This document shows, piece after piece, positions 3,493 through 46,757 of a stretch of 51,534 nucleotides of DNA. Made by a program: the position numbers and the translations under genes. The notes beneath the pieces were generated by a model. It was given only the letters and a program-made list of their open reading frames with translations. It did no database searches and had not been told where the DNA came from. Position 1 is the stretch's first letter; each line of letters starts with the position of its first letter. Origin of the DNA: Limosilactobacillus gorillae (lineage in GTDB: Bacteria; Verrucomicrobiota; Kiritimatiellia; RFP12; UBA1067). The stretch is from assembly GCA_963653155.1 (NCBI GenBank), contig CAVJWR010000007.1, forward strand, positions 1-51,534, in the 5' to 3' direction.

Positions 3493-3630
3493 AGTAGTAG
3501 GTTTTAGCTTGGAGCTTTGAGCTTTTAGCTTTTAGTTGGTAGTTGGTAGTGGTAGGTTTCAAATCATAAAATGACTAAATGGCAAAATGCAATCGTAAAT
3601 CGCAAATCGTAAATCATAAATCATAAAGAT
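3492..3630. repeat. Intergenic region built from three blocks of phased heptanucleotide repeats
   Basis: 3505-3532: TAGCTTG GAGCTTT GAGCTTT TAGCTTT. 3533-3553: TAGTTGG TAGTTGG TAGTGGT, which contains TTGGTAG, the reverse complement of CTACCAA. 3589-3630: GCAATCG TAAATCG CAAATCG TAAATCA TAAATCA TAAAGAT. Blocks A and B are flanked by the direct repeat TAGT[A/G]GTAGGTTT (3492-3504 and 3547-3559). Confidence 0.85.
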
Positions 3631-3631
3631 T

Positions 3632-3991
3632 TCAGCAGGAGAAGCCCTGCACGGGATAGTACGCCATGTCTTTCCGGCGGTCGAGGCGTCCGTAGACGGC
3701 GACGACTGGCACATCAGACTCAAGGATCGTCGCGGTCTGTCCCGGCCCAAGCTGGAACTTCTCGTCGCCGAGCGGATAGTCCATGCGAAAGCACTTGACG
3801 CGCCGCGCTGGCACGTGCAGCGTGATGTCCTCTTTCGGATCCTTGTCGTCGAAAAGAATCGTGACCTTGATCGTCGCGTCCTTCTCGCCGTTGTTTACAA
3901 CCATAAGGGCCTCATGTCCGAACGGCTCCGAATCACCGTGCGGCGGCAGGTCGCCATCCGAGAACACCCATGTTTTCTTTCCGATTTCCAT
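3632..3991 (-). CDS. Sensory rhodopsin transducer (ASRT) family protein
   Basis: 119 aa. It aligns by eye with Anabaena ASRT / Thermotoga TM1070-type proteins: W-x-F-x-DG-x-LPPHG..EPF-x-HE..VVNNG..DA..V-TI-x-F-DDKDP...L-x-VPARR...R and ..SDVPVV.....RLDRR. An SD-like AAGGAAGGA lies upstream of the ATG. Confidence 0.75.
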   Translation of the reverse strand: MEIGKKTWVFSDGDLPPHGDSEPFGHEALMVVNNGEKDATIKVTILFDDKDPKEDITLHVPARRVKCFRMDYPLGDEKFQLGPGQTATILESDVPVVAVYGRLDRRKDMAYYPVQGFSC

Positions 3992-4099
3992 TGCTAAAGT
4001 CCTTCCTTGGCCTTGCGCCTCTTTTCAAACAACGCCCGCAATTGTACACTTGCGCACCATCCGTTTCAATTGCACTGTTTGCCGTTTCAGATAGACATT

Positions 4100-4137: not shown

Positions 4138-5355
4138 ATGAAGATGACGCAAACACCGAAAGTCGGAATCCTGGTGGAGATCACGCGTGAATTCGGACGC
4201 GGCATATGTCGAGGCATATCCGAGCTTGCGCGGGAGACCGGCTCATTCATCCCGTATCTCATAGATGCGTCCGCGCTGCGCAAGCCAGATGAATTGCGCG
4301 GATACGACGGGTTCGTGGCCCGCGTCATGAATGACCGCATCGCTGCGACGCTCGCCGCAACTGGTCGCCCCATTGTGGATGTCTATTACGATCGCCCACG
4401 TGATGGTTTCGCCATCGTGAAGACGCGGCACTCGCGCATCGGTACGCTCGCCGCCGAACACTTCCTTGAACGCCGTTTCAGGAATTTCGCCTTCTGCGGC
4501 TTTGCCGGTGGGCGGTTCTCGGCGTATTGCCGGGCGGCCTTCACCCGTGCGTTGGCCAAGCACGGAATAAAATGCGCAAACTACGATCCTGATCCTGCGG
4601 CCCACTATGCCTTCAGCCCACAGGTGCTGATCAACGAACAGATGCGGCCAGCGCCGGACGCATCCGCACTCGCACGCTGGCTTAGACAGTTGCCCAAGCC
4701 CATCGCCATATTCTGTCCGAACGACCTTCGCGCATGGCAGCTCGTGCATATCTGCAAGCAGCGCAAAATAGCAGTGCCTCGTGAAGTCGCCATCCTCGGC
4801 CTCGACAACGACATTCTCGTATGCGGCCTGTCCAACCCAATGATCTCAAGCATAGACCCCGACGCCGAAGCCATCGGGCGGTGCGCGGCGACCACGCTCC
4901 TCCAGCTCATGGGCGACCAGCATTTCTCCACGAAACGGATCGTGCGGCAGGTAGATCCAATCGGCGTAATTGAACGCACCTCAACGGAGGTCTACCCTAT
5001 CGAGCCTCAGTGGATTTCGGATGCGCTCGTATTCATGAACCGCAACATTTCCCGCAACCTCACTGCATCAGACATATACCGTCAAGTGGGATTGTCACAC
5101 ACGCAAGTGGACAAGGTCTTCCGATCAAGGCTCGGCACGTCGGTACAGGGCGAGATCGCCACCATGCGGCTTGAACGCGCACAGCATCTTCTGACCTCAT
5201 CCACACTCTCCATAGCGGAAATCGCCCCCAAATGCGGATTCTCCACACCGCAGTACCTGATAAGGAGCTTCACGAAAAGGTTTGGGATATCCCCCGCCGC
5301 CTGGCGCACCAAAGCCGTTTTGGCACGAAAAAGGATCGACAGCAAATTCACGTAA
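4138..5355 (+). CDS. XylR-type transcriptional regulator (LacI/periplasmic-binding-like sensor domain plus AraC-family HTH)
   Basis: 405 aa. The N-terminal ~270 aa resemble a sugar-binding PBP/LacI-type fold (VGILVEITREFGRGI..., ..IAIFCPNDLRAWQ.., ..VAILGLDND..). The C-terminus is an AraC HTH (..LTASDIYRQVGLSHTQVDKVFRSRLG.., ..GFSTPQYLIRSFTKRFGISPAAWR). Confidence 0.85.
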   Translation: MKMTQTPKVGILVEITREFGRGICRGISELARETGSFIPYLIDASALRKPDELRGYDGFVARVMNDRIAATLAATGRPIVDVYYDRPRDGFAIVKTRHSRIGTLAAEHFLERRFRNFAFCGFAGGRFSAYCRAAFTRALAKHGIKCANYDPDPAAHYAFSPQVLINEQMRPAPDASALARWLRQLPKPIAIFCPNDLRAWQLVHICKQRKIAVPREVAILGLDNDILVCGLSNPMISSIDPDAEAIGRCAATTLLQLMGDQHFSTKRIVRQVDPIGVIERTSTEVYPIEPQWISDALVFMNRNISRNLTASDIYRQVGLSHTQVDKVFRSRLGTSVQGEIATMRLERAQHLLTSSTLSIAEIAPKCGFSTPQYLIRSFTKRFGISPAAWRTKAVLARKRIDSKFT

Positions 5356-5389: not shown

Positions 5390-7492
5390 GTGATTGGACA
5401 AAGGAAATATCATTTTACGGGGATAGGCGGCGTTGGCATGGCAGGCGTCGCATTTCTCCTGAAGAAAAGCGGTTGCGACGTATCCGGCTGCGACCTCCAC
5501 TCCACGCCAAGGACAAGATGGCTGGAGGCAAACGGCGTACATGTCGATGTGGGGCACTCGCCGGAACACATCACCCCAGACACCGACGTATGCGTATTTA
5601 CGCCAGCAGTCCAGAAAACCAACCTGGAATTTATCGCCGCGCAATCGCTTGCGGAACGAGACTCGGACGCCCCAGCCGGCGCACCTGCGAGGCATGAGGT
5701 CAAATACCGTGGCGAAGTGCTTGCCGAGCTGTTTAACGCATCAGACGGCATAGCGGTATGCGGCACACACGGCAAGACGACCACCGCAACCTTCATCGCA
5801 AAGCTTCTTCGTGCGCTTGGCGACGACCCATCGTGGTGCATCGGCGGCGAAACTGGCGATTTCCCAGTGGCGGGCGTAGGCTCCGGCAAGTTCGTCATAG
5901 AGGCCGACGAGTCGGACGGCACCCTCGCACTCTACCGCGCCTCCATACTTGTCGTCACATCGCTCGAATACGACCACCCCGACCATTTCAAGACATATGC
6001 CGACTACCTTGACTGCTACAAGAAGGCGATGTCTGCCGCCAAATGCGTAATCGAGTCCGCAAAGCTCAACGTCGAGGACTGGCCTGAACTGCGTGGACTT
6101 GTGCTCGGCGAACACAACGTACGCAATGCGCGTACCGCCATCGAAGTGGCGCTACGGCTCGGCCATACGCATGACAAAATATCGTCCGCATTGCCGCAAG
6201 TACTGTCATCGCTGCCAGACCGACGGTTTGAGCGGATATGGCCGCAGGGGTTCTCGACGAACCATGCATCCTCCGATGCGCCGATTTTCATATTTACGGA
6301 CTATGCGCACCACCCTACGGAGATATCATGCGCCATCTCAATGGCGAAGGCCCTCAAGCCAAAACGCCTACGGGTTATGTTCCAACCTCATCGGTATTCA
6401 CGAACAAAGGCATTGCTGAACGAATTCCCGTCCGCATTATCAGGCGCGGATGAAGTTGTGCTGATCCCCGTATATCCGGCATTTGAGGAACCGATCCTAG
6501 GCGGAGACATTGCCGACCTGTACCTTGCGTTCAGAAAGGCAAGGCCGGACAACGTTGGCGACCTGATACTTTCCCGTAATGCGGAAGAGGCGTGGCGGCA
6601 CATGTTCCTGTCCGCCAAAGAAGGTGACCTCATAATGGTCCTTGGGGCCGGCGACCTTATCGACCTTGTTCCTCAGATCGTCAATGACATGCGTTCGATA
6701 GGTAACGGCAAGCCACAAAACGGTGTCCACGAGAAGATAGACCTTTCAAGACTGTCTCTATTCCGCACTGGCGGCATTTCCTACGGAAACCTAATTCAAG
6801 GCCTTGTCGCCCCAAGCAACAGCAAACACGGAAGCGTAATCGTAGGCGGCGGCTCGAACATCTGGTTCAGCGACTGCACCACAAATTGCGACATCGTAAA
6901 GGCTCCCGCCGAATGCGGCGCGGCGAAGCCTGGATCATCACTTTTGTCGAATCATCCAGAACTTGCGTTCATGGCAGGAATCCCCGGGACTGTTGGCGGA
7001 TGGGCCAAGATGAACGCAGGCGCATTCGGGGACAGTTTCGGGAGCCACATCGAATACGTAATCGCGGATGGACGGAAGATCCTTGCCAAAGACTGTGGAT
7101 TCGGATACCGCAAATCATCCATATCCGGTCTGATAACGGAAGTCGCGCTAAAAGCCTCTTGCGTAAACGGCGGCGAAGACCAGAACACGGCACAATCCTT
7201 AGATGCCGCACACTACATCGCCAAACGGCACAGGTTTCCGCCTCGCACATGCGGCAGCGTATTCAAGAACCCTTCGCCACAGCAACCTGCCGGCAAACTC
7301 CTTGAGGCCGCAGGCGCCAAATCCCTCAAAGTCGGCGGCGCGTACGTATGGAGCGGACACGCAAACGTAATCGTAGCGGGCGACGGGTGTACGTCGTCGG
7401 ATATACTCGCCCTTGCCAGGCTGATGGCCGCGCTGGTCCGCAGCAGATTCGGAATTACCCTCGTCCCGGAAATAGCCGGGCTTGAGGTGTAG
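5390..7492 (+). CDS. murC: Fused UDP-N-acetylmuramate--L-alanine ligase (MurC, about aa 1-450) and UDP-N-acetylenolpyruvoylglucosamine reductase (MurB, about aa 455-700)
   Basis: MurC motifs: YHFTGIGGVGMAGVAFLL, GTHGKTTTATFIA, DYAHHPTEI. C-terminal MurB motifs: LFRTGG, VGGGSNIWF, GIPGTVGGWAKMNAGAFG, FGYRKS, CGSVFKNP..PAGKLLEAAG, GHANVIV. The GTG start at 5390 is needed to keep the conserved N-terminal Rossmann motif. Confidence 0.85.
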   Translation: MIGQRKYHFTGIGGVGMAGVAFLLKKSGCDVSGCDLHSTPRTRWLEANGVHVDVGHSPEHITPDTDVCVFTPAVQKTNLEFIAAQSLAERDSDAPAGAPARHEVKYRGEVLAELFNASDGIAVCGTHGKTTTATFIAKLLRALGDDPSWCIGGETGDFPVAGVGSGKFVIEADESDGTLALYRASILVVTSLEYDHPDHFKTYADYLDCYKKAMSAAKCVIESAKLNVEDWPELRGLVLGEHNVRNARTAIEVALRLGHTHDKISSALPQVLSSLPDRRFERIWPQGFSTNHASSDAPIFIFTDYAHHPTEISCAISMAKALKPKRLRVMFQPHRYSRTKALLNEFPSALSGADEVVLIPVYPAFEEPILGGDIADLYLAFRKARPDNVGDLILSRNAEEAWRHMFLSAKEGDLIMVLGAGDLIDLVPQIVNDMRSIGNGKPQNGVHEKIDLSRLSLFRTGGISYGNLIQGLVAPSNSKHGSVIVGGGSNIWFSDCTTNCDIVKAPAECGAAKPGSSLLSNHPELAFMAGIPGTVGGWAKMNAGAFGDSFGSHIEYVIADGRKILAKDCGFGYRKSSISGLITEVALKASCVNGGEDQNTAQSLDAAHYIAKRHRFPPRTCGSVFKNPSPQQPAGKLLEAAGAKSLKVGGAYVWSGHANVIVAGDGCTSSDILALARLMAALVRSRFGITLVPEIAGLEV

Positions 7493-33570: not shown

Positions 33571-34296
33571 CTACTTGTCCGTAACGAGAGTGCCAACGGC
33601 CTCGCCCTTTACAACGCGTTCAAGGGCATTGCCGTCAAAGAAATCGAACACAACTATCGGGATATCGTTATCCATGCAAAGCGCGAAAGCGGCGGAATCC
33701 ATGACCTTGAGCCGTTTCTCTATGGCCGTCTCATATTTGAGGGAGCCATACTTCTTCGCCTTGGGATCCTTCATCGGATCAGCCGTGTATATCCCATCCA
33801 CCTTGGTGGCCTTCAATAGCGCATCCGCACCGATTTCGCTGGCCCGCAGCGCAGCCGCCGAATCCGTGGAGAAGTACGGATTGCCAGTACCTCCTGCAAA
33901 TATGCACACGCGCCCCTTCTCGAAGTGGCGTATCGCCTTACGCTGTATGAACGGCTCCGCCAACTTCGGCATCTCGATGGCCGTCATCACCCGGGTCGGG
34001 ACACCTATGGACTCAAGGGCGTTCATCATCGCCAGGCCGTTTATGATTGTCGCGAGCATTCCCATCGAATCGCCGGTCACGCGGTTGACGCCCTTCGCCG
34101 AGCCGGAAAGCCCACGGAAGATGTTCCCGCCGCCAAGCACGATCCCCACTTCGCAGCCAAGCTTGTGGATCTTTTTGACGCGCTCGGCCATAAACGCGAG
34201 TCGCTTGGGGTCGATGCATTCCCCGGTCTCGCGATTGGCGAGCACTTCGCCGGAGAGTTTAAGCAAAATACGTTTGAATTTTAGTTTTCGCTTCAT
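33571..34296 (-). CDS. pyrH: UMP kinase
   Basis: RILLKLSGEVL, IVLGGGNIFRG, FAGGTGNPYFSTDSAAALRA, ATKVDGIYTADP. Confidence 0.9.
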   Translation of the reverse strand: MKRKLKFKRILLKLSGEVLANRETGECIDPKRLAFMAERVKKIHKLGCEVGIVLGGGNIFRGLSGSAKGVNRVTGDSMGMLATIINGLAMMNALESIGVPTRVMTAIEMPKLAEPFIQRKAIRHFEKGRVCIFAGGTGNPYFSTDSAAALRASEIGADALLKATKVDGIYTADPMKDPKAKKYGSLKYETAIEKRLKVMDSAAFALCMDNDIPIVVFDFFDGNALERVVKGEAVGTLVTDK

Positions 34297-34328
34297 GGCG
34301 CATATTGTACGAAATTCAGACCTTCAAA

Positions 34329-35348
34329 TCAAGTGCAGAGAGGCTTGCGGGGAAAACGTGCGTCAAGCTCCATGGTGTCGGAAAGGGATCGCGCAGCCGA
34401 CACGGAATCCCCGACGGAAAGGTTCATCGCCGCCGCGCACGACGCAAGCCTCATCCCCTCTTCGGCAGACATCCCTCTTACGAACGAATAGAGCATTCCG
34501 GCGCAGAAGGCGTCCCCAGCCCCGACAGAGCCCCTTATCCATCCCTTCGGAAGATCGAGCGACGGCACAGCCGTAAAGTTCCCGGACTTGTCGAGGGATA
34601 CGCTCAGTTCCGGAGAATGCACCACGACCTGCTCCTTCACCCCAAGGCCGAACAGGCCTTCGCAAATGCGGCGCAAGCACGAGACGGAAGCCTTGCCGTC
34701 CTCGCAACCGGCGGGAAGGCCAGTGGCGTTAGCCCCTTCCACCTCGTTTATCACCACATAGTCGCAATGCCTCAGCGATGGCCTCACCACGCGGGCAAAG
34801 CGTGCGGACTGTTCGCTGACGATATCCACGGAAGTCTTTATCCCGGCCGCCCGCACCTTTGCGAGAAGCCGGGCCGCCTTTGTCCCAAACTCTTCATCCT
34901 CCGCATCGAGGCCATCAAGCAGAAGCAGGTAACCAAGGTGGAACAGGCTACAGCCAAGCGTAGCCGGATCAATGTCGTCAGGCGTGAGCTTGGAGTCGGC
35001 CCCGTGCATGTTGAAGAACGTCCGCTCGCCAGTCGACGCTACCGTCATTACGTCCGTAAACGACGTAGGGACGCCATCGACTTTCTGTACGCCAGAGACG
35101 TCAAGTCCGTTCTCGCGCAGGAATCCAGTGACAAAGTCGCCCGCATCGTCAGCCCCAACCTTGCCGACAGCGGCGACATCAATCGACGGATCCAGCCTCT
35201 TGAGGTCTATGCCGCTGTTGGACACAGAGCCGCCAGGGGATCTGCGCACCGATGTGATCGGCACGAGCATCCCCTTCTTCGGCCAGGCGGTGATGGTCTT
35301 TACGTTGTCGACTATTATGTTGCCGGCGAGTACGACTCTGTCAGACAT
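34329..35348 (-). CDS. PfkB family carbohydrate kinase
   Basis: The start is taken at internal ATG 35348 (MSDRVVLAGNIIVD...). The long ORF-track version (to 35591) overlaps the upstream gene. Motifs PGGSVSN and GAGDAFCAG are present. Confidence 0.8.
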   Translation of the reverse strand: MSDRVVLAGNIIVDNVKTITAWPKKGMLVPITSVRRSPGGSVSNSGIDLKRLDPSIDVAAVGKVGADDAGDFVTGFLRENGLDVSGVQKVDGVPTSFTDVMTVASTGERTFFNMHGADSKLTPDDIDPATLGCSLFHLGYLLLLDGLDAEDEEFGTKAARLLAKVRAAGIKTSVDIVSEQSARFARVVRPSLRHCDYVVINEVEGANATGLPAGCEDGKASVSCLRRICEGLFGLGVKEQVVVHSPELSVSLDKSGNFTAVPSLDLPKGWIRGSVGAGDAFCAGMLYSFVRGMSAEEGMRLASCAAAMNLSVGDSVSAARSLSDTMELDARFPRKPLCT

Positions 35349-35365
35349 ATCTGGCTCCGTGCAGA

Positions 35366-36721
35366 TCAAGCCCTCTTGGTTTCCCAGGGCTTGCCGGGCA
35401 ATGGGAACCTGTCGTCGCCGTATTCCGGCATCGGAACGTCTCCATCCTTCTCGAAGTCCACCGGCGTGGGCTTGCATTCGAGGCTGTAGAACGGAGATGC
35501 CGCATTGCGCAGGATATCCGCCATCGAGACCATCTGGCCCGTGTATGCCGAAAGCCTGATCATCACGCCACACGCGGTGGACAGTGCGCAATCCTTGCCT
35601 TCATTGAGATATGGGCCAGCCCCAAGCATGCTCTTCAGGAGATCGACATGCTCCTGCACATACGGATTCACGTCGGCGAAATCGCCGGCAAGCTCGATCT
35701 TCTTGCCGCCCACCGTCTTTGCGATCTGTCCGCCGGCTATCGTCTCCTTGGCCGTACGGAAGAACTCCCGCACGTCATTCTTGCAGTCGCTGATCTGGCG
35801 GCACATGGAGTGTATGTGCACTCCCTCGCCGTAGTCAAGGTCTGCGGAGAAGAAGTCGTACTGGTTCCCAGATACGCGACGCATGCGGCCTCCGAACGCC
35901 AGGGCGGTCTTTGGGAAACGTCCGATGAACCAGTTCGCGACATCGATGTTGTGGACATGCTGTTCGCAGATATGGTCGCCCGAAAGCTCCGTGAAGTTCA
36001 GCCAGTTGTTGCAGAGGTAGTCCTTGTTGGACATCTCCGGAGTGCGCTCGCGCACCCATGGCACACGGCTATTCCAGTACACCTCTCCACCAAGGATAGG
36101 ACTAAGCACACCCTCGTCAAGTGCCTTCTTCTGAAGGAGATACCCGCGCTGGTGCCGCCTTTGCGTTCCGCACACGATCGACAGCTTCTTCTCTGCGGCA
36201 ATGCGCGAGGCCTCTATCATCAGGCGAACGCCAGGCGCATCTACGGCCACGCCCTTCTCCGCGAACACGTGCTTGCCGGCATTTACGGCGGCCATGGTGT
36301 GGATGGGGCGGAAGTTCAGCGGCGTAGTCAGTATCACAACGTCAACGTCGGGCATTTCAATGGCCTTCTTGTAGCCATTGGCGCCGCCAAACGCGAATTT
36401 CTTGTCAACGCCAAACTTCTCTGCCGCGAATTCGGCCTTCTTCAGGAAATAGTCCGCAAACGCCACCGGTTTTACGGTGACGTCAATGCCCTCCTTGCGA
36501 AGGATTTCCGCCGCCTGCAGCATATTGCCGAGTGCGCCAAACTTGTAGAAGTCCTGGGCATTGGCAGGTTTCCACATGCCACCGGTGCCGCGTCCGCCGC
36601 AGCCGACAACCGCCACCCTTATCTCCTTCTTGCCTGCCGCCAAGCCAGCTACGCTTGCGCAGCCAGCCATGCCTGTCACCGCAAACACCGAACCCGACTT
36701 GAGGAACGTTCTCCTGTTCAT
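35366..36721 (-). CDS. Gfo/Idh/MocA family oxidoreductase with twin-arginine (TAT) signal
   Basis: MNRRTFLKSGSVFAVTGMAG.. (RR motif) followed by the Rossmann motif IRVAVVGCGGRGTG. The start is taken at ATG 36721. Confidence 0.8.
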   Translation of the reverse strand: MNRRTFLKSGSVFAVTGMAGCASVAGLAAGKKEIRVAVVGCGGRGTGGMWKPANAQDFYKFGALGNMLQAAEILRKEGIDVTVKPVAFADYFLKKAEFAAEKFGVDKKFAFGGANGYKKAIEMPDVDVVILTTPLNFRPIHTMAAVNAGKHVFAEKGVAVDAPGVRLMIEASRIAAEKKLSIVCGTQRRHQRGYLLQKKALDEGVLSPILGGEVYWNSRVPWVRERTPEMSNKDYLCNNWLNFTELSGDHICEQHVHNIDVANWFIGRFPKTALAFGGRMRRVSGNQYDFFSADLDYGEGVHIHSMCRQISDCKNDVREFFRTAKETIAGGQIAKTVGGKKIELAGDFADVNPYVQEHVDLLKSMLGAGPYLNEGKDCALSTACGVMIRLSAYTGQMVSMADILRNAASPFYSLECKPTPVDFEKDGDVPMPEYGDDRFPLPGKPWETKRA

Positions 36722-36744
36722 CCGTACATTTTCCTTTCTTGTTG

Positions 36745-37686
36745 TTAGCATTCAGCCCACTGCCTGCGCAGCAGTTCGCACATGTTCGTCAAAATCTGGT
36801 GACGCTCCGCGAGATCGGGCAATATCGGCCTGCCCTTCGCGTCTTTCCCCTTCGGCACCCATCCGGCCTCAAGCGACACTACTCCTTTGTAGCCGATCTC
36901 CTTAAGGCCACGGAATGCAAGGCGGTAGTCATCTGCGGCGCCATCCGATCCCGGTATCTTGCGGTTCTTGCGCGAGGCTATGTGGACGTGGGCGAGAAGG
37001 TCGCCGGCGGCAATAATCGCCGCCCGGTCATTCGCCTCCTCCCACGTCATGTGCCACAGGTCTGCCATCACCTTGCACCCAGGGCCGATCTCCTGCGCCA
37101 TCTTTGCGCCATCGGACACTTGGCGCAAGAAAGGCGTCTCCTTGCGCTGTAGCGGCTCAAGCACTATCGCCGTTCCGCATTTCGCCGCCTTCTCGGCAAG
37201 CCGGCGACCGGTGTTCGTGACGAAATCTTCGCGCAGTTCCTTGAGCCCCACCTCTGGCTTCGCCCGTGCCGGACAGATTATAAGCCCAGTGGACTTCAGT
37301 CCGCCAAGTATTTCAAGCAATGGAAGGAACTTGGCGACCTCGGCATCGTTCTGCCTGCTGTCGGCATAGTCAAAGCGGCTTGGCCCGCAAGCGGTGGCGC
37401 AAGAAAGCTTGCGCCCCGCCATTGCCTTGCCGAACGCTTCGCCCTTTTCGAGCACCCATTCGCCATTTTTCCCGGTGGGGATCTCAACGGCGGAATACCC
37501 GTTCGATTCAAGATAGTCAAGCTTCGCATTCATGTCGTCCGCAACCGGTATCGTCCCCCACTGAAGACACAGCTTCAGGGCAGGGCCGCAACCGCACTGG
37601 CGGACCGCACCGCCCGCATTGGCGCAACCTGAGGCGACTCCCGCGCCGACAAGTGCCGCACTTGCGATAAACTCTCTTCTGTTCAT
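36745..37686 (-). CDS. Sugar phosphate isomerase/epimerase (xylose-isomerase-like TIM barrel) with TAT-type signal
   Basis: MNRREFIASAALVGAGVASG (RR motif) followed by a TIM-barrel pattern. The start is taken at ATG 37686. Confidence 0.7.
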   Translation of the reverse strand: MNRREFIASAALVGAGVASGCANAGGAVRQCGCGPALKLCLQWGTIPVADDMNAKLDYLESNGYSAVEIPTGKNGEWVLEKGEAFGKAMAGRKLSCATACGPSRFDYADSRQNDAEVAKFLPLLEILGGLKSTGLIICPARAKPEVGLKELREDFVTNTGRRLAEKAAKCGTAIVLEPLQRKETPFLRQVSDGAKMAQEIGPGCKVMADLWHMTWEEANDRAAIIAAGDLLAHVHIASRKNRKIPGSDGAADDYRLAFRGLKEIGYKGVVSLEAGWVPKGKDAKGRPILPDLAERHQILTNMCELLRRQWAEC

Positions 37687-37753
37687 TCTGGAATCTCCCT
37701 TTGCGCCCATTATAGCACAATTCGACGAAACACTTGGCCCCACATGGATACGG

Positions 37754-38251
37754 TTATTGAACCGTGATCGTCCTTTGCTCGTAGTGGCCGGGCTGCCATA
37801 CGCGAATCACCGCACCATTTGCCTGGACCTGATCGACATAGCGCCCTTCGACCCAGACGTTCTGGACTTGCGTGACGGGTGCCACAACGACAGGCTGCTG
37901 GACGACCACTGGCTGCGTGACGACGGTTGGCGTGGTCACGACCGTAGGCGTAGTCACTACGACCGGCGCGGGCTCTACGATTGTGCTGGCGACCGCGCCT
38001 CCCACAAAGCCACCCACAAAACCGGGCCAGAAGTTGCGTCCGCCCCGTCCCCAGAAACTATCGTCATGACGATGGCGCGGCGCTGGTGGCGGACGATGCC
38101 CACCGCCTCCCGGACCTCCGCGCATGCTTGGGCCCGGACGACCGCCTCCCGGACCGGGCCGACCACCACCCGGACCACCGGGACGGGCCATGCACACTCC
38201 GGTGCACAGAATCGTTGCTATAGCAACTGCAACAGTATATTTCTTGTTCAT
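37754..38251 (-). CDS. Small secreted Gly/Pro-rich low-complexity protein
   Basis: 165 aa. The signal peptide MNKKYTVAVAIATILCTGVCMA is followed by RPGGPGGGRPGPGGGRPGP..., a (T)TPTVV/QPVVV repeat region and a C-terminal WVEGRYV...RVWQPGHYE module. An AAGGAAA SD lies upstream. Confidence 0.6.
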   Translation of the reverse strand: MNKKYTVAVAIATILCTGVCMARPGGPGGGRPGPGGGRPGPSMRGGPGGGGHRPPPAPRHRHDDSFWGRGGRNFWPGFVGGFVGGAVASTIVEPAPVVVTTPTVVTTPTVVTQPVVVQQPVVVAPVTQVQNVWVEGRYVDQVQANGAVIRVWQPGHYEQRTITVQ

Positions 38252-38371
38252 TTTATTTTCCTTTCTTTATTGCGGCAGATTTGCCTTACGAAGAGCATAG
38301 GGCAACATACCCAAGTTTTCTGACAGAGAATTCTCGTGATTGCGGCACATAAGTTCAAACCGCCATTCACG

Positions 38372-38941
38372 TCAATAGCCCAAGTCCGCATCCACAAGTA
38401 TGACGAGCGTTGACGTACGGGATGGACACCTGTCGAATATGGCCGTCACTTTGCATATGCGGTCAGGAGAGTTGCAGTCGGCGCAAAGGTTCGTTTCCGC
38501 GCATGGCGTACGCTTGCCGAGCCTACGGCAGTTCGGGCCACACGCACACCGCTTCGCGCGGCCAATGGCCTCCAGCACACCCCCGGCGACAATCTTGTTC
38601 CTGCCTATCACATACACGACGCGCTTCGGCCCATAGATGGATGCCGCAACGCGATTGCCGGTGCCGTCAATATTTACGATCACGCCATCTTCCGTCATCG
38701 CATTGGCCGACAGAAGGAATAGATCCATAATGGTCTGGTGGTCGCAAATCTCCTTGCCTGAGGCCAAAAGCGACTCGCGCACACCCAAGGCCTTCACGCT
38801 CTCGGATCCGCCCCAACCGACAGACTTGGCCGTCTCGGCCTCCTTCATGACGATGGCGGAAGCATCTGCCCTAGTCGCCGCGAAAGTCGCGTCGTATCCA
38901 CGGCGTCTCAATGCCTCAACCGTTTTTCCGTAATCTCTCAT
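38372..38941 (-). CDS. LUD-domain (lactate-utilisation LutC/YkgG-like) protein with C-terminal Cys cluster
   Basis: 189 aa. ..SVGWGGSESV.., ..LLSANAMTEDGVIVNIDGTGNRV.., ..VVYVIGRNKIV.. and the C-terminal CxxC-rich segment CACGPNCRRLGKRTPCAETNLCADCNSPDRIC. Confidence 0.7.
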   Translation of the reverse strand: MRDYGKTVEALRRRGYDATFAATRADASAIVMKEAETAKSVGWGGSESVKALGVRESLLASGKEICDHQTIMDLFLLSANAMTEDGVIVNIDGTGNRVAASIYGPKRVVYVIGRNKIVAGGVLEAIGRAKRCACGPNCRRLGKRTPCAETNLCADCNSPDRICKVTAIFDRCPSRTSTLVILVDADLGY

Positions 38942-38984
38942 CCGTTCCTTTCCACATTAATCGCAGTCGCTCCATGCTCACAGT

Positions 38985-40604
38985 CTATCTAAACAAGCCT
39001 ATGCGCAAGTACGGCAAGATGTCATTCACAAGAGTATAGTCCAAATCGAAGAACGCAACGCCGGCGGCACCGTTCTGGCGGGCGATCTTCACCTGATCTA
39101 TCACCTGCCGCACGCCAAGCCGGGATTCGATTGCGGTGACGCCAATGCCAGACACTATCCGTTTTGCATGGGCGGGGGTGCGGCACTGCTGCCGAACGCA
39201 AGCCGCATACTTGGCGTTGTCCTCAAGATAGTTCATGGCCACTATCCAGTCCACAATGCCCGCATCGAGCCAACTCTCCCAGTCCTGACCCACCGCGCCC
39301 ACGCAACTTGGATACTTCCCGAACACGGCCGTCGTGAAAATGGCAGAGGGCCGGGCCCTCTTCACTCGACCTCTCGCCTGCGCCACGAAATTGCCGACGT
39401 GGCTCGCCGCATCAGGTGGCAACTTCGAGCCCTCATACCAACGGACGAAATCGAGATGCACACCCTGCACGGCATAACGGCTCGTGACTTCATCTATCGC
39501 GGAAAGCAGATACTCTCTGAGACTCGCGTTGGACGGATCAAGGTATTCCGTAAGCCGTCCCTTCTTGTCCTTCAGCCGCCAACCGCGTTTCGCGAATGTC
39601 TCAAGTCGAGAGGATGTTCCCCTCGTCCCATTGAAGCACATTATCCATGCGTGCACCCGAATGCCCGTACCAGCGGAAGCCCGCAGACATGCGGCAAGCT
39701 GATCGCCCTGTTGCGCACACACCTGGCTCTGGGGCAGGACCTTGGACGGATAATGCGCGAATGATGCCCCTGCCACATTGACGAAAATATCCGTGATGCC
39801 ATATCTCTGGAGTTCACGGAAAGTCCTCGGCCAATCTCCCGGATAAAGGCCCTGCCCCGAATGCTCCCACACTGCACGGACCTCGCCGGTTCGCGGGCTC
39901 TGCGCAAGTGCATAGCGGCGATCAGCCTCCTGTTCGGCCTTGCGTTTCGCCAGGAAGGTCTTGTGGCTCCAGGTGCCGGGAACGCTCATGCCGGCGACAG
40001 ACGCAAGGAATTGCGACTTCGCCTTCTCGTCGCCATCGGCAAGCAGAACATGCGTCATCCACCAACCGGCATTCGAGGCGATGACGGCCGCCTGACCCGT
40101 TGAACGCCCGTTCCTGTCGAGCCACGTCGCAATCACGCGGGACTTCCCCGGTACGGCGTACGCGCAAAAGATGTTCGCCGAACTCTGTATGATCTCCGCC
40201 GGAGCGCCGGGTGGAGCAGTTTTCCCGAACGATATCTTCGAGAAAGCCCCTGAGCCGTCGGATTTCCTGTACGCGCCCAGTTTCACACCAAACAGCGAAG
40301 CAACCTTTGCGGAATCGGAATAGAACGCAAACATCCTCCCGCCACTACGCGCAAATGCGGACAAAGCCGCATAATGGGCATCCTTCGGCATTATCAGATA
40401 TGCCAGGCGTTTCCCGGACAATCCCACGCCAGCGGCATTCTCGTCGACAAGATCCACCTGGATGTCGTGTTGCCCGAGCCAACGCACAATGTGCCGCCCA
40501 AGGCTAAGGCCAAATCCTGACTTCGGCGCCACAACCGCGATGTCAGAAGCCTGACAGAGCGAAGCAATGAGGATTGCCGCGAAAACCAACTTAGACTTAA
40601 GCAT
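38985..40604 (-). CDS. Secreted GHL10-type (DUF187/YngK-like, family-10-like) glycosyl hydrolase-like protein
   Basis: 539 aa with a signal peptide. The C-terminal TIM-barrel-like region has ..YGITDIFVNV.., ..GIRVHAWIMCFN.., ..YLDPSNASLREYLLSAIDEVTSRYAVQGVHLDFVRW... Confidence 0.65.
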   Translation of the reverse strand: MLKSKLVFAAILIASLCQASDIAVVAPKSGFGLSLGRHIVRWLGQHDIQVDLVDENAAGVGLSGKRLAYLIMPKDAHYAALSAFARSGGRMFAFYSDSAKVASLFGVKLGAYRKSDGSGAFSKISFGKTAPPGAPAEIIQSSANIFCAYAVPGKSRVIATWLDRNGRSTGQAAVIASNAGWWMTHVLLADGDEKAKSQFLASVAGMSVPGTWSHKTFLAKRKAEQEADRRYALAQSPRTGEVRAVWEHSGQGLYPGDWPRTFRELQRYGITDIFVNVAGASFAHYPSKVLPQSQVCAQQGDQLAACLRASAGTGIRVHAWIMCFNGTRGTSSRLETFAKRGWRLKDKKGRLTEYLDPSNASLREYLLSAIDEVTSRYAVQGVHLDFVRWYEGSKLPPDAASHVGNFVAQARGRVKRARPSAIFTTAVFGKYPSCVGAVGQDWESWLDAGIVDWIVAMNYLEDNAKYAACVRQQCRTPAHAKRIVSGIGVTAIESRLGVRQVIDQVKIARQNGAAGVAFFDLDYTLVNDILPYLRIGLFR

Positions 40605-40613
40605 CTTGCACCA

Positions 40614-42152
40614 TCACCAATCGCGGTCGTTTGACGGGAGCGGCATGTTTCTCATGCGGGCCTTCTTGTCCGCCTCATGCTGATCATTGCGCTCCTGCGC
40701 CTTGCGCAGCACGTCCTCCACCTGTCGGTCATCCTTGCCGTCCGCCTCGGAAGGCTGTTCGTCCTGCCCATCACGAGGGGTCTCTTGCCCATTTTCGTCA
40801 TTCTTGTCCTGACCCTGATTCTGCTCGTCATTCTGTGGCTGGTCGCCCTTGTCTTGCTGATCCTGGCCCTTATCCTGCCGATCCTTGTCTTTGCCGTCAT
40901 CTTTGTCCTGATTCTGCTGATCATTGCCTTGGTTCTGATTCTGGGCCCCACCCTGCTGTTGGTTCTGCCCGCCGCCATTCTTGTCCTTCGGCAACAGTTC
41001 CCGTATCCTATTCAGCTTCTCAAGCACACGGAATTCCTTTGCCGCATGATCTGCGGCCTGGCCACCCCCACGACGATCCGGCTTGCCCTTTGACAGCCGT
41101 TCATCGTCAACGGCAAGTTCCTCCTGCAGTTTGATGGATTCGTCTACGAGCTTCTTTATCTCCGCCTGCGCCTCGGCCGTGAACGGCGGCATGTTCGTGT
41201 CGGACTGCGCCTTTTGCCCGTACATCTGGACCCATTGCTCGAACTTGGCGCGAAACGCATGCATGTAGTCGAGAGACTCCATCTGCCAGTCCCTACCGTT
41301 TATCGTGTCTGCCCTAACCAGTGAATTGGTCTGGGATAGGATCGCCTCGTCGCATGCCTCCGGCGGCAAGATGGCGAGTTTCCAGAATCGCGTCAGTGAC
41401 GACTCCGCCTTGGCAAGGCTCGACTGCGCCGAAGGATCGAGATCCGCAAGCGACTTCGCGGCTGAGTCTGTGGCCGCACGGGCTTCGTCAACCTGCGCCG
41501 TTATGGGCATGGCCTGCTGTTCGTTGGTGACCGACTGCGCCACGCCCTTTTTGAGCGCAATCCACATGTCGCTCAACCGCTCGACGCGCCGTGCCATCGC
41601 TTCGCATCTGGACACTGCGGATCGTGCGTCATTGGTCAGCGCGACAGGGAACTCAACCATGATCGAACGGGCCTCGCGCACACCCGAACCAAGCAGACTC
41701 GATGGATCCTGCTGCCCGAACTCCTTCAATGCCTTCTCGATGTGCGCCTGTTCGCGCAACTCAGGCAAACGATCCGCAGCCCTTGTGAAATTGCGGTTCA
41801 TCCGGGCATCGTCCGGATTGGAGCGAAGCGCCGCCTGAAGATCCGTGGCCGAGCTCTCGATGGACCGAAGGGCCTCTTCCGGGCTTTCACCTAAATTCTT
41901 CTGCCCACGCGCGAACTCTATCGCACCGACAAGCTCCGACGCTCTCACCCCATGCGTCTTTGAGAGCATGAGGGGCTTCAAGACCGCAATGGCGTTGGTC
42001 ATGTCGCCAGCGCGATACAGGTCTACGCCACGGTTCCATATCTCACCGTCTGTCTCGGGCATGGGTTCAGAATCGGCCCAAACGCTTCCAGGGGCAGAGG
42101 CCGCAAGCCCTATCGCAAGATAAATTATGCCGACGATTCCATTCCTTTTCAT
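40614..42152 (-). CDS. Secreted TPR-like protein with long Q/N/D/K-rich acidic tail (BatC-like architecture)
   Basis: 512 aa with a signal peptide and a TPR-like start (EIWNRGVDLYRAGDMTNAIAVLKPL). The tail is a low-complexity GGGQNQQQGGAQNQNQGNDQQNQDKDDGKDKDRQDKGQDQQDKGDQ... stretch ending ..SNDRDW. The BatC resemblance is from memory and is not verified. Confidence 0.6.
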   Translation of the reverse strand: MKRNGIVGIIYLAIGLAASAPGSVWADSEPMPETDGEIWNRGVDLYRAGDMTNAIAVLKPLMLSKTHGVRASELVGAIEFARGQKNLGESPEEALRSIESSATDLQAALRSNPDDARMNRNFTRAADRLPELREQAHIEKALKEFGQQDPSSLLGSGVREARSIMVEFPVALTNDARSAVSRCEAMARRVERLSDMWIALKKGVAQSVTNEQQAMPITAQVDEARAATDSAAKSLADLDPSAQSSLAKAESSLTRFWKLAILPPEACDEAILSQTNSLVRADTINGRDWQMESLDYMHAFRAKFEQWVQMYGQKAQSDTNMPPFTAEAQAEIKKLVDESIKLQEELAVDDERLSKGKPDRRGGGQAADHAAKEFRVLEKLNRIRELLPKDKNGGGQNQQQGGAQNQNQGNDQQNQDKDDGKDKDRQDKGQDQQDKGDQPQNDEQNQGQDKNDENGQETPRDGQDEQPSEADGKDDRQVEDVLRKAQERNDQHEADKKARMRNMPLPSNDRDW

Positions 42153-42169
42153 TGGCGGTAATTATACCA
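42153..42169 (-). promoter_or_regulatory. Extended -10 promoter, leaderless geometry (BatC-like gene), abutting inverted heptads
   Basis: On the - strand TGgTATAAT (42169-42161), then 8 nt to ATG 42152. There is no SD. Confidence 0.45.
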
Positions 42170-42203
42170 CAGTAGATGGTAGTTGTTAGTTGGCAGGTGG
42201 CAT
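42169..42203. repeat. Five phased degenerate heptads in inverted orientation relative to the main array (ACAGTAG ATGGTAG TTGTTAG TTGGCAG GTGGCAT)
   Basis: Read directly from the sequence. ATGGTAG is the reverse complement of the CTACCAT unit. The block overlaps the spacer and -35 region of the predicted promoter of the 40614-42152 gene. Confidence 0.6.
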
Positions 42204-42242
42204 GTTTTACCGGGGAGAAGTGTAGAGATTGCAAATTGAATA

Positions 42243-42648
42243 CTACCCACTACCCTCTACCAACTACCCTCTACCAACTACCCACTACCCTCTACCCACT
42301 ACCCACTACCCACTACCAACTACCCACTACCCTCTACCCACTACCAACTACCCTCTACCAACTACCCACTACCCTCTACCCTCTACCAACTACCCACTAC
42401 CAACTACCCACTACCCTCTACCCACTACCAACTACCCACTACCAACTACCCACTACCCACTACCAACTACCATCTACCCTCTACCCACTACCATCTACCC
42501 TCTACCCACTACCATCTACCCTCTACCCACTACCATCTACCCTCTACCCACTACCATCTACCCTCTACCCACTACCATCTACCCTCTACCCACTACCATC
42601 TACCCTCTACCCACTACCAACTACCATCTACCAACTACCATCTACCAA
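42243..42648 (+). repeat. Tandem array of 58 contiguous heptanucleotide units CTACC[C/A][A/T]
   Basis: Parsed unit by unit. The CTACC core is invariant in all 58 units with no indels. Unit types are CTACCCA x21, CTACCCT x15, CTACCAA x13 and CTACCAT x9. Units 33-53 (42467-42613) are seven exact copies of a 21-nt super-unit. The + strand is G-free from 42239 to 42659. Confidence 0.95.
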
Positions 42649-42780
42649 CTAATCTTCCAGAATGTTGTCATTACAACAGAATATGATTGCAAGATTTCAT
42701 ATCATATGCGCCATCGGAAGGAACGGGTCTTTCCGCAACACAAAAAAAAACACGAAACAAAAAAAAAACGGAGGTGCACC

Positions 42781-43029
42781 ATGAAAGGAGTCATCAAGCA
42801 ATCAATCACGATCGCTCTGACGGTCGGAACACTCGCCATAGTCCTCGCGGGCTGCTGCATGTTCTGCGACAAGTCCTGTTGCCGCAAAGACGACGGCTGT
42901 CCGCCGAAGACGAGCGGCGTGAACACGTCCATGAGCGTCGGCGTCGGCACGGACGGTGCCTATGTTGGCGGCGCAGCCAACGTCGGCAACCACGGTGCTT
43001 CCGGCTCTGTCGGCGGCAAACTTCACTAA
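42781..43029 (+). CDS. Small Cys-rich, Gly-rich lipoprotein (82 aa)
   Basis: GGAGG lies 6 nt upstream of the ATG. The lipobox is ..TLAIVLAGC and is followed by CMFCDKSCCRKDDGC, then a Gly-zipper-like GVGTDGAYVGGAANVGNHGASGSVGG. It is the 3' part of the artefactual long ORF 42229-43029. Confidence 0.6.
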   Translation: MKGVIKQSITIALTVGTLAIVLAGCCMFCDKSCCRKDDGCPPKTSGVNTSMSVGVGTDGAYVGGAANVGNHGASGSVGGKLH

Positions 43030-43054
43030 CCCAGAAACGAACAGGAGGTCAATC

Positions 43055-43162
43055 ATGAACATGACTTGCTGGATCAGCCTTGGAGTAATCGTCATTGTCG
43101 CACTGGCAATCTTCTGCTGGTGCCGCCGTGGCTGCGGCCATCGCGACAACGATTCCATGTAA
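43055..43162 (+). CDS. 35-aa single-TM Cys-rich peptide
   Basis: AGGAGG lies 6 nt upstream of the ATG. The product is MNMTCWISLGVIVIVALAIFCWCRRGCGHRDNDSM, and the gene starts 25 nt after the preceding stop. Confidence 0.5.
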   Translation: MNMTCWISLGVIVIVALAIFCWCRRGCGHRDNDSM

Positions 43163-43246
43163 TCAACTAACCCGATCGCGACGCGTCGCACAAACTCCGC
43201 GTCGCGACACTGCAAAACGCCAATGTCGCACCTAATGATGCGTCTG

Positions 43247-43288
43247 GCCAGCGGCCCTCACTTTTTGCAAAAAGTGAGGGCCGCTGGC
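43247..43288. terminator. Perfect 42-bp palindrome (hairpin; possible bidirectional terminator or operator)
   Basis: GCCAGCGGCCCTCACTTTTTG/CAAAAAGTGAGGGCCGCTGGC is perfectly self-complementary. It lies between the small-peptide genes and GH88. There is no U-tract after the stem, so terminator function is uncertain. Confidence 0.4.
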
Positions 43289-46667: not shown

Positions 46668-46757
46668 TGGCGGAGGGGGGGGGATTCGAACCCCCGGTGG
46701 ACTTGCGCCCACACAACCTTTCCAAGGTTGCACCATCGACCACTCGGACACCCCTCC
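46668..46757 (-). tRNA. tRNA-Ser (anticodon GGA), CCA encoded
   Basis: The reverse complement reads GGAGGGGTGTCCGAGTGGTCGATGGTGCAACCTTGGAAAGGTTGTGTGGGCGCAAGTCCACCGGGGGTTCGAATCCCCCCCCTCCGCCA. Acceptor stem GGAGGGG/CCCCTCC. Anticodon stem CAACC/GGTTG with loop TTGGAAA (anticodon GGA). Long variable arm. T-arm GGGGG-TTCGAAT-CCCCC. Confidence 0.9.

Follow-up and report, generated by a model that had tools for sequence, protein, structure and literature searches.

The heptanucleotide array and its intergenic region

The DNA analysed here, called the window, is the whole of the 51,534-nt contig CAVJWR010000007.1 (assembly GCA_963653155.1, positions 1 to 51,534, forward strand) from a genome placed in the Kiritimatiellia, and the element under study is a tandem heptanucleotide array that lies between two divergent genes, one for a secreted protein of 512 aa on the left and one for a putative lipoprotein of 82 aa on the right. 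The array comprises 406 nt in 58 in-phase 7-nt units, with the core CTACC in every unit; variation is limited to unit position 6 (C or A) and position 7 (A or T), and no singleton variant occurs over the 406 nt. The four unit types are CTACCCA (A, 21 copies), CTACCCT (B, 15), CTACCAA (C, 13) and CTACCAT (D, 9), arranged in the order ABCBCABAAACABACBCABBCACABACACAAC (DBA)x7 CDCDC, and the + strand is free of G for 421 nt (42239 to 42659). An earlier note, made from the letters of this DNA, had described the 58 units, the four types and their counts, the G-free strand and the sevenfold 21-nt block, all of which were confirmed by recounting, as was its intergenic region of 628 nt (42153-42780). 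Tandem Repeats Finder scored the array at 584 (period 21) and 505 (period 14), compared with at most 61 for every other repeat in the window. With uninterrupted units, a copy number that varies between relatives (see below) and a non-coding position, the array has all the characteristics of a heptanucleotide long simple sequence repeat (SSR) or variable-number tandem repeat (VNTR). The features of this locus and of a second heptad locus are listed in Table 1.

Table 1. Features of the main array locus and of the second heptad locus (positions in the window).
Feature	Position	Strand	Remarks
Second CTACC locus	3493..3560	-	Heptad leader that abuts the M24 peptidase ATG
Third heptad array	3591..3627	-	Just past the stop codon of the ASRT-family gene
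512-aa secreted protein gene	40614..42152	-	Left neighbour of the array; Q/N/D/K-rich C-terminal region
Promoter-like site of the 512-aa gene	42161..42189	-	-35 CTAACA, 17-nt spacer, extended -10 TGgTATAAT; from promoter scan
Degenerate inverted heptads	42172..42200	+	Four to five, GGTAG-type on + strand; kept in L142 and L143, absent from L001 and L002
Main heptad array, 58 x CTACC[C/A][A/T]	42243..42648	+	G-free strand is sense for the downstream lipoprotein gene
Units 1-32	42243..42466	+	Mosaic of A, B and C; 49-nt exact self-match at an offset of 84 nt (12 units)
Units 33-53	42467..42613	+	Seven exact copies of the 21-nt CTACCAT-CTACCCT-CTACCCA; from self-comparison
Units 54-58	42614..42648	+	C D C D C; homologous to the entire short allele of L142 and L143, everything leftward is extra
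Conserved right flank	42649..42780	+	About 96% identical to L142
82-aa putative lipoprotein gene	42781..43029	+	Right neighbour, GGAGGT Shine-Dalgarno; conserved in L142 and L143
35-aa Cys-rich membrane peptide gene	43055..43162	+	Conserved in L142 and L143

The three parts of the array differ in their internal order. The self-match within units 1-32 is a block duplication, and the sevenfold 21-nt block of units 33-53 is the youngest expansion in the array; including partial matches on both sides, the exactly 21-periodic tract extends over 154 nt (42466-42619). The longest exact internal repeat (133 nt, at offset 21) lies in this block. All k-mers of the array are unique from k>=134 and form a self-consistent path, and unambiguous assembly requires k>=134 or long reads, whereas an exact unit count requires long reads; an assembly at k=141 is at its resolving limit for the 21-nt block, the seven copies of which may be a lower bound. 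Outside tandem runs, single heptad matches are not enriched in the window (9 on both strands, about 25 expected from base odds).

The array is outside any open reading frame (ORF). All frames of the - strand are closed across it by TAG, and the + strand frames are open because the G-free strand excludes TAG and TGA and the units never create TAA. A 266-aa ORF with YPLPTTH repeats (42229-43029) runs through the array into the lipoprotein gene; a coding role was rejected, the frame upstream of the lipoprotein ATG being closed by stops in both related strains that carry the locus (L142 and L143, see below). A protein search with this ORF matched only spurious YPLPTTH/HYSLLTT ORFs over unrelated heptad arrays, and more than 100 similar spurious “proteins”, some of them fused to real domains, are present in protein databases. 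Among the Rfam covariance models run on the window, the gathering score was reached by tRNA-Ser alone (46668-46757) and the array was unmatched.

On the left, the array begins 53 bp upstream of the -35 hexamer of the 512-aa gene (42189 to 42243) and 42 bp beyond a group of inverted heptads, and thus it is not located between the -35 and -10 elements of this predicted promoter. The inverted heptads, which the earlier note had reported over the -35 hexamer and the spacer of the promoter-like site, do overlap both elements, although 42169-42203, the limits given there, are better replaced by those in Table 1; over 29 nt they are 86% complementary to the distal end of the array (42617-42645). Only 8 nt separate the extended -10 from the ATG, and there is no Shine-Dalgarno sequence (42153-42166, - strand). 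This arrangement is kept in L142 (8098-8111) and in relatives with otherwise unrelated upstream DNA (L001 and L002, both at 3975-4003); the sequence suggests that the mRNA of the 512-aa gene may be leaderless or near-leaderless. No Pfam family was assigned to the 512-aa protein. Its C-terminal part (40620-41000, - strand) is Q/N/D/K/G-rich and of low complexity, with imperfect 6/12/21-nt repeats that differ among the orthologues (L002-L007).

On the right, the promoter or an operator of the lipoprotein gene probably lies within the conserved flank between the array and the gene, although promoter scans for this gene (and for the M24 gene, see below) gave no site above threshold, and upstream of the array they gave no promoter-like site that reads rightwards; a sigma-54-like TGGCAT...GC near 42198, judged by eye, has the wrong spacing. 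Directly to the right of the array is a palindrome, TGTTGT-N4-ACAACA (42663-42678), which L142 and L143 keep apart from a single spacer change; it resembles an operator, and no cognate regulator was identified for it. Just upstream of the GGAGGT site are two A-tracts, A9 (42742-42750) and A10 (42759-42768). The second is A10 in the window, A9 in L142 and A6 in L143, and the first is interrupted (AAACAAAC) in both strains; the tracts appear to be a second, more classical length-variable element beside the ribosome-binding site. The earlier note had placed two tiny Cys-rich peptide genes on this side; these encode the 35-aa membrane peptide and the 82-aa protein, the latter with a lipoprotein-type signal (an LAGC lipobox, as read from its sequence). 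Compared with a related strain, the 82-aa gene has five synonymous and two non-synonymous codon changes.

Related strains and the dispersed heptads

The 82-aa protein has only two other records, in L142 (Logan SRR14619838, 8.8 kb) and L143 (ENA ERZ28641067). L142 is 93.1% identical in nucleotides to window positions 34045-43280 over 8.2 kb with an identical gene order, and its flanks align base for base with those of the window, including the -10, the inverted heptads, the spacer and the right flank with the palindrome. Its intergenic region has 247 nt, compared with 628 nt in the window. The array of L142 consists of three units, CTACCAA-CTACCAT-CTACCAA (CDC), followed by the degenerate CTAACCC-ACTAATC, and that of L143 has four, CTACCAA-CTACCAT-CTGCCCA-CTACCAA (C D A* C), followed by the same type of degenerate tail. 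Alleles of 3, 4 and 58 units are therefore found between conserved flanks. The AA-, AT- and CA-type units are already present in the short alleles, with a core substitution in one of them (CTGCCCA, L143), and the window allele is built only of short-allele unit types plus CTACCCT. From these sequences, the ancestral or an alternative state at the locus would be a run of 3-4 units (CTACCAA, CTACCAT, CTACCCA-like) between the same flanks.

A third sequence (L008, SRR13434664) is 100% identical to the window over 1793 nt and ends inside the array after the first five units. Its left junction and these five units are of the window type, unlike the short-allele junction, and the long allele is thus not peculiar to one assembly, because L008 reproduces them independently. 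In two other relatives, L001 (92% nucleotide identity) and L002 (90%), the heptad locus is absent; homology with the window ends at 42171 and 42169, respectively, that is, at the start of the inverted heptads, and beyond this point (about position 3982-3986 in their own numbering) each carries other, unrelated genes. Since homology stops at the first inverted heptad, the heptads mark a synteny breakpoint, and they appear to be the boundary of a rearrangement or an island. In L004, a more distant relative, other heptads (GTAAAAT x3, GGAGAAT x3; 5503-5540) directly follow the stop codon of the orthologue of the 512-aa gene. These heptads abut another extended -10 (TGgTACAAT), and heptads again supply the would-be -35 region.

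Heptads of this family are found at one more place in the window, 39 kb from the main array: the spacer (3493-3631) between the ASRT-family and M24 (Xaa-Pro) aminopeptidase genes, both on the - strand, is almost entirely composed of heptads. The earlier note had recorded a recurrence at 3533-3553; TTGGTAG is indeed in tandem there (at 3536 and 3543), in a spacer between genes of the same strand and before the M24 ATG, not in a divergent region. In the sense direction the M24 leader reads TTGAAAC-CTACCA-(CTACCAA)2-(CTAAAAG)2-CTCAAAG-CTCCAAG-CTAAAAC-CTACTACT-ATG, and it is preceded by the third array, (TTTATGA)2-TTTACGA-TTTGCGA-TTTACGA, and a conserved segment of 40 nt. Runs of CTACCAA or CTACCCA at the M24 leader are found in the window (3533-3555) and in L144-L148, with TAGCTTT and AATCGTA arrays nearby. 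Among the relatives with M24 proteins that are at least 90% identical, the leader reads TTGAAAC-(CTACCCA)3-CTACCAA-(CTACCCA)2-CTACCAA-CTACC-ATG in L144-L148 (L144, 9940-10003) and (CTAACCA)2-CTAACGA-(CTAACAA)2-CC-ATG in L149 and L150 (L149, 9959-10003); in L135 it is made of CTCGCAA, CTTACAA and CTCACAA units (166-247). The M24 leaders of these four lineages contain 0-5 G and no Shine-Dalgarno sequence, and the heptad sequence is different in each lineage. The position of the M24 start codon matches that of 390-aa homologues from Firmicutes, which carry AGGAGG there. The M24 locus shares the junction TTGAA[A/G]C-CTACC with the main locus of L142 and L143, and both CTACC arrays of the window are oriented in the sense direction of the downstream gene.

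In about 236 kb of the clade, 7 is the dominant period among the non-coding tandem repeats of at least three copies, and repeats of period 6, 12 or 21 are coding low-complexity sequence. In about 50 kb of genome examined, one heptamer occurs in tandem at more than one locus together with other heptamers. The CTACC-N-A heptads appear from these comparisons to be a dispersed, fast-evolving family in this gut Kiritimatiellia lineage.

Heptads of this kind are not restricted to the clade. A metagenome scan for (CTACCNN)x5 gave at least 120 loci from every kind of environment; among the matches listed, almost all were homogeneous arrays of 5-18 units, many of them at contig ends, and many contigs carried several unrelated heptad arrays. 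The pattern is non-specific, and no close relative was found among these matches. Long mosaic arrays are also present in metagenomes (about 60 units in L024, at least 35 in L073, and others in L050 and L019), and a scan of viral contigs for six CTACC[CA][AT] units returned six homogeneous arrays, with no mosaic and no link to phages. In the metagenome loci, with crude ORF calls, the CTACC arrays showed no consistently preferred direction with respect to the genes beside them. Among the matches listed, inverted pairs of heptad arrays occur on six unrelated metagenome contigs (L039, 1370-1499; L058; L070, 767-918; L096, 533-643; L103, 909-1010; L111, 7324-7497) in addition to the window (42172-42648); in all seven the polarity is GGTAG-type, a gap of 41-120 nt, then CTACC-type, and the reverse polarity was seen in none.

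The segment that carries the array is an ordinary chromosomal one. A Pfam scan of 38 window proteins revealed housekeeping and carbohydrate-active genes (GMP synthase, ArgRS, a MurC/MurB fusion, prepilin peptidase, MoxR/DUF58, a sigma-54 activator and many glycoside hydrolases) and none for replication, partition (ParA/B), Rep or ribbon-helix-helix (RHH) proteins. The relatives of the 512-aa gene all belong to gut or rumen metagenome-assembled genomes of Kiritimatiellia/Kiritimatiellota, and a member of the M24 cluster is annotated as Kiritimatiellae. Look-ups of the exact 82-aa, 35-aa, GH88-like and M24 proteins of the window found none on record. The apparent MurC-MurB fusion, a 700-aa ORF at 5390-7492 with MurC-like Mur ligase domains and a MurB C-terminal domain, is also present in L144 and L145. 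Between the M24 gene and a divergent regulator with LacI-type periplasmic-binding and AraC-type helix-turn-helix (HTH) domains (4138-5355) lies a homologue of the Anabaena sensory rhodopsin transducer (ASRT, PF07100; 3632-3991), and this arrangement of the three genes is kept in all close relatives.

Origin of the array and alternative explanations

We consider it probable that the array is a hugely expanded allele of an unstable heptanucleotide tandem repeat, a long SSR or VNTR of the dispersed CTACC-N-A family. A few seed units would have grown by slipped-strand mispairing and/or unequal sister-strand recombination, with growth steps of one, three and twelve units (7, 21 and 84 nt), and the amplification would have been too fast for private point mutations to build up; the differences at positions 6 and 7 would have been inherited from three or four seed units and then amplified. 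Because of this rapid amplification of seed units, the invariant core and the two-position variation would be a founder effect and not a selected code. No selection is needed for them, since with two or three founding differences the chance that these are adjacent is about 1/3; a rule of a 5-nt core plus two adjacent variable positions was rejected, as the variable positions are adjacent in 5 of 16 other arrays with two such positions (1/3 expected), which makes the adjacency of positions 6 and 7 unremarkable. The left -35 and the right flank with the likely lipoprotein promoter both lie downstream of the array, whose most probable effect would therefore be passive: it would push the divergent promoters about 380 bp apart and form a recombination-prone, non-B-prone tract at a synteny breakpoint, and any regulatory effect would follow the length of the array, not its sequence. 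The earlier note had argued from the invariant core for selection or very active homogenisation. Homogenisation agrees with the data; selection does not, given the 3- and 4-unit alleles and the one core substitution, and the findings that were to count against a selected array there, namely drift in unit number and orthologous regions without the repeat, have largely been made in the relatives.

Several points weigh against an expanded allele of this kind. The comparison covered assemblies, in which variation in length within a population, the hallmark of a hypermutable tract, is not directly visible, and the three alleles come from lineages that have diverged by about 7%, not from near-identical isolates. 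That the change was an expansion rather than a contraction is inferred from the sequences, and the copy number of the 21-nt block is at the limit of what an assembly at k=141 resolves. Moreover, heptads persist at the M24 leader in at least four lineages, so there may be some reason for keeping certain heptad arrays, and the main array may have a length-dependent or RNA-level role.

A contingency locus, in which the number of units tunes or switches the expression of the 82-aa lipoprotein and/or the 512-aa protein by changing promoter spacing, the geometry of upstream elements or the length of the 5' leader, seems to us rather unlikely, although it is compatible with an expanded allele and does not exclude it. 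The length polymorphism (3, 4 and 58 units), which bears out the VNTR suggested in the earlier note as far as length is concerned, would agree with such a locus, as would the envelope or secreted nature of both neighbours, the position between two divergent start sites and the A-tracts near the lipoprotein Shine-Dalgarno sequence, which also vary in length between strains. The array is, however, outside the -35/-10 spacing of the left promoter, well upstream of its -35, and this promoter has an extended -10 and little need for upstream sequence; the right flank with the likely lipoprotein promoter is conserved and downstream of the array, and the alleles compared here come from lineages about 7% apart, not from switching within one population. 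Another explanation, which we regard as unlikely, starts from the RNA: sense-strand, G-free, unstructured CTACC-N-A leaders would replace the Shine-Dalgarno sequence and recruit ribosomes or an S1/Csp-like factor, and the main array would be an overgrown copy that is transcribed as a long leader or sink. The M24 heptads, which run into a start codon where Firmicutes homologues have AGGAGG, the G-poor M24 leaders without Shine-Dalgarno in four lineages and the sense orientation of both window arrays are in line with this, and the + strand RNA of the array is predicted to be fully unstructured (minimum free energy 0, which is trivial for a G-free sequence and relevant only if the array is transcribed); the TAACTGA repeats of Beggiatoaceae occupy the same position (PMC4679880). 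Yet the gene that starts 132 nt beyond the main array has a strong GGAGGT and a likely promoter flank, so that the array may be untranscribed; no rightward promoter-like site was found upstream of it, the sequence of the M24 heptads is not conserved between lineages and the metagenome arrays show no consistent gene orientation. A broader version would make the CTACC-N-A heptads a modular cis-element peculiar to the gut Kiritimatiellia lineage (sense-oriented, G-free, structure-free leaders that substitute for Shine-Dalgarno, are recognised by a factor that binds single-stranded nucleic acid and spread between loci with the TTGAARC junction, the 58-unit array being an overgrown leader or titrating sink and long arrays seeding rearrangements at synteny breaks); this we hold to be equally doubtful.

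It is improbable that non-B DNA, with G-quadruplexes on the - strand and i-motifs on the C-rich strand that regulate transcription or replication in the manner of the GGGNATC heptamers of Xanthomonas and Nostoc, accounts for the array. Of the quadruplexes proposed in the earlier note, the count of units with GGG on the - strand holds (36 of 58), motifs with loops of up to 12 nt span nearly the whole array, quadruplexes are predicted in the ViennaRNA gquad fold of the - strand RNA, and G-rich heptamers form quadruplexes in vitro (PMC4692102). There is, however, a single canonical G3-N1-7 motif (42281-42311, G3-N4 x4), and 22 of the 58 units lack GGG, so the array does not have a G3+ tract in every unit with loops of at most 7 nt, as heptamers of the Rehm type do; the short-allele units CTACCAA and CTACCAT have GG only, and the capacity for quadruplexes is thus neither ancestral nor conserved, and published quadruplex heptamers favour four units and avoid divergent intergenic regions (PMC4692102). 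An iteron- or centromere-like platform for a cooperative DNA-binding protein, comparable to the omega/RHH heptads or plasmid iterons and likewise suggested in the earlier note, is hardly credible. The contiguous heptads in direct and inverted orientation beside a promoter and the 21-nt super-unit of about two helical turns would suit it, but the unit is CTACCMW, neither WATCACW (omega) nor 17-22 bp (iterons), the ordinary chromosomal segment encodes no Rep, ParA/B or RHH protein among the 38 scanned, the related strains keep the promoter and genes with 3-4 units while L001 and L002 do without the locus, and CTACC heptads also occur in an mRNA leader (the M24 gene). That the array, or its length, is an artefact of a mis-assembled short repeat is likewise very unlikely. 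Its 154-nt 21-periodic tract falls within the range of 141-161 nt that is barely resolved at k=141, the copy number may be under-called, and short-read contigs usually break at such arrays (L008 and many of the listed metagenome matches); nevertheless, no k-mer is repeated at k>=134, the left junction and first five units are found again in L008, an independent sample, and the array is interior to a 51.5-kb contig.

Known heptanucleotide repeats and significance

The STRR heptamers are tandem repeats of heterocystous cyanobacteria with the units CCCCAGT, TTGGTCA or CAACAGT, and they were reportedly described by Mazel in 1990. Long heptanucleotide SSRs and STRR share with the window array the head-to-tail 7-nt units in mostly intergenic positions, the presence of several heptamers per genome with one heptamer at more than one locus, and a copy number and sequence that vary between close relatives; they are ascribed to polymerase slippage and have no assigned function. 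The host differs (gut Kiritimatiellia, of the PVC group), as do the units, which are unlike STRR1-3, and the array would thus be functionally STRR-like and not a member of STRR in the strict sense. The analogy with STRR drawn in the earlier note is supported, since these heptads are also present at the M24 locus, and the relatives have other heptad arrays in their spacers. In Haemophilus influenzae, ATCTTTC repeats in the promoters of hmw1A and hmw2A form a contingency locus with a graded effect on expression. These are also 7-bp repeats upstream of envelope or surface genes with strain-to-strain differences in copy number, but the hmw arrays are homogeneous, have a few to a few tens of units and lie between promoter and start codon, whereas the array described here is a mosaic and is known from its sequence alone. 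The operators of the omega (RHH) protein of inc18 plasmids, e.g., pSM19035, consist of 7-10 WATCACW units and are accompanied by the genes of omega and delta (ParA). Contiguous 7-bp units, direct and inverted, over a promoter are common to both systems; the WATCACW unit, the number of 7-10 units, the plasmid context and the omega and delta genes are all missing here, no cognate RHH, Rep or Par gene was found, and neither the sequence nor the number of the units (3, 4, 58 or absent) is conserved.

Heptanucleotides are the commonest class of long SSR in many bacteria, ascribed to polymerase slippage (Mrazek 2007, as cited in PMC4679880 and PMC4692102). The 58 units exceed the maxima quoted in two papers, 26 (PMC4692102) and 43 (PMC4679880), although metagenome arrays of about 60 units exist. 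In marine Beggiatoaceae, TAACTGA heptamers stand directly upstream of start codons that lack a Shine-Dalgarno sequence (MacGregor 2015, PMC4679880); in some Bacteroidetes and Cyanobacteria they reach up to 43 copies, and the long forms coincide with rearranged regions (PMC4679880). The M24 leader behaves likewise, with heptads before a start codon without Shine-Dalgarno, and in both systems short sets are common, very long arrays are rare, and long arrays are found at synteny breaks with a suspected role in rearrangement; this comparison rests on two loci here, not on a genome-wide set. The heptamer is different, the sequence of orthologous leaders is not conserved between lineages here, and 132 nt lie between the main array and the next start codon, whose gene has its own Shine-Dalgarno sequence. 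The GGGNATC/GGGGAYT heptamers of Xanthomonas and Nostoc, which form quadruplexes in vitro, have at most 26 units (Rehm 2015, PMC4692102). They share with the array G3-containing 7-nt units with 4-nt loops and a variable copy number, they are over-represented in non-coding DNA, and their G-rich strand is antisense upstream of ORFs, as here; they differ in that they prefer four units and are under-represented between divergent ORFs, whereas here 58 units lie between divergent genes, GGG occurs in 36 of the 58 units only, and the ancestral units have GG.

The array is real and striking but explicable, a known kind of repeat in a host for which no earlier report linking Kiritimatiellia with tandem repeats was found. 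It extends the heptanucleotide long SSRs (STRR-like, TAACTGA-like) to an uncultured gut lineage of the PVC group, and it is a cautionary case of a perfectly “coded” repeat that can be explained as the founder effect of three or four seed units, without selection. The more interesting residue is the heptad family itself, with an M24 leader that lacks a Shine-Dalgarno sequence and is rebuilt in each lineage and an array at a synteny break. The locus can serve as a strain-typing marker and is a predictable assembly breakpoint in gut metagenomes. Alleles of 3, 4 and 58 units with identical flanks, together with an orthologous leader rebuilt from different heptads, form a natural series that is useful for asking why bacterial polymerases favour 7-nt slippage, and the M24 leaders are useful for asking whether G-free heptad leaders drive translation independently of the Shine-Dalgarno sequence.

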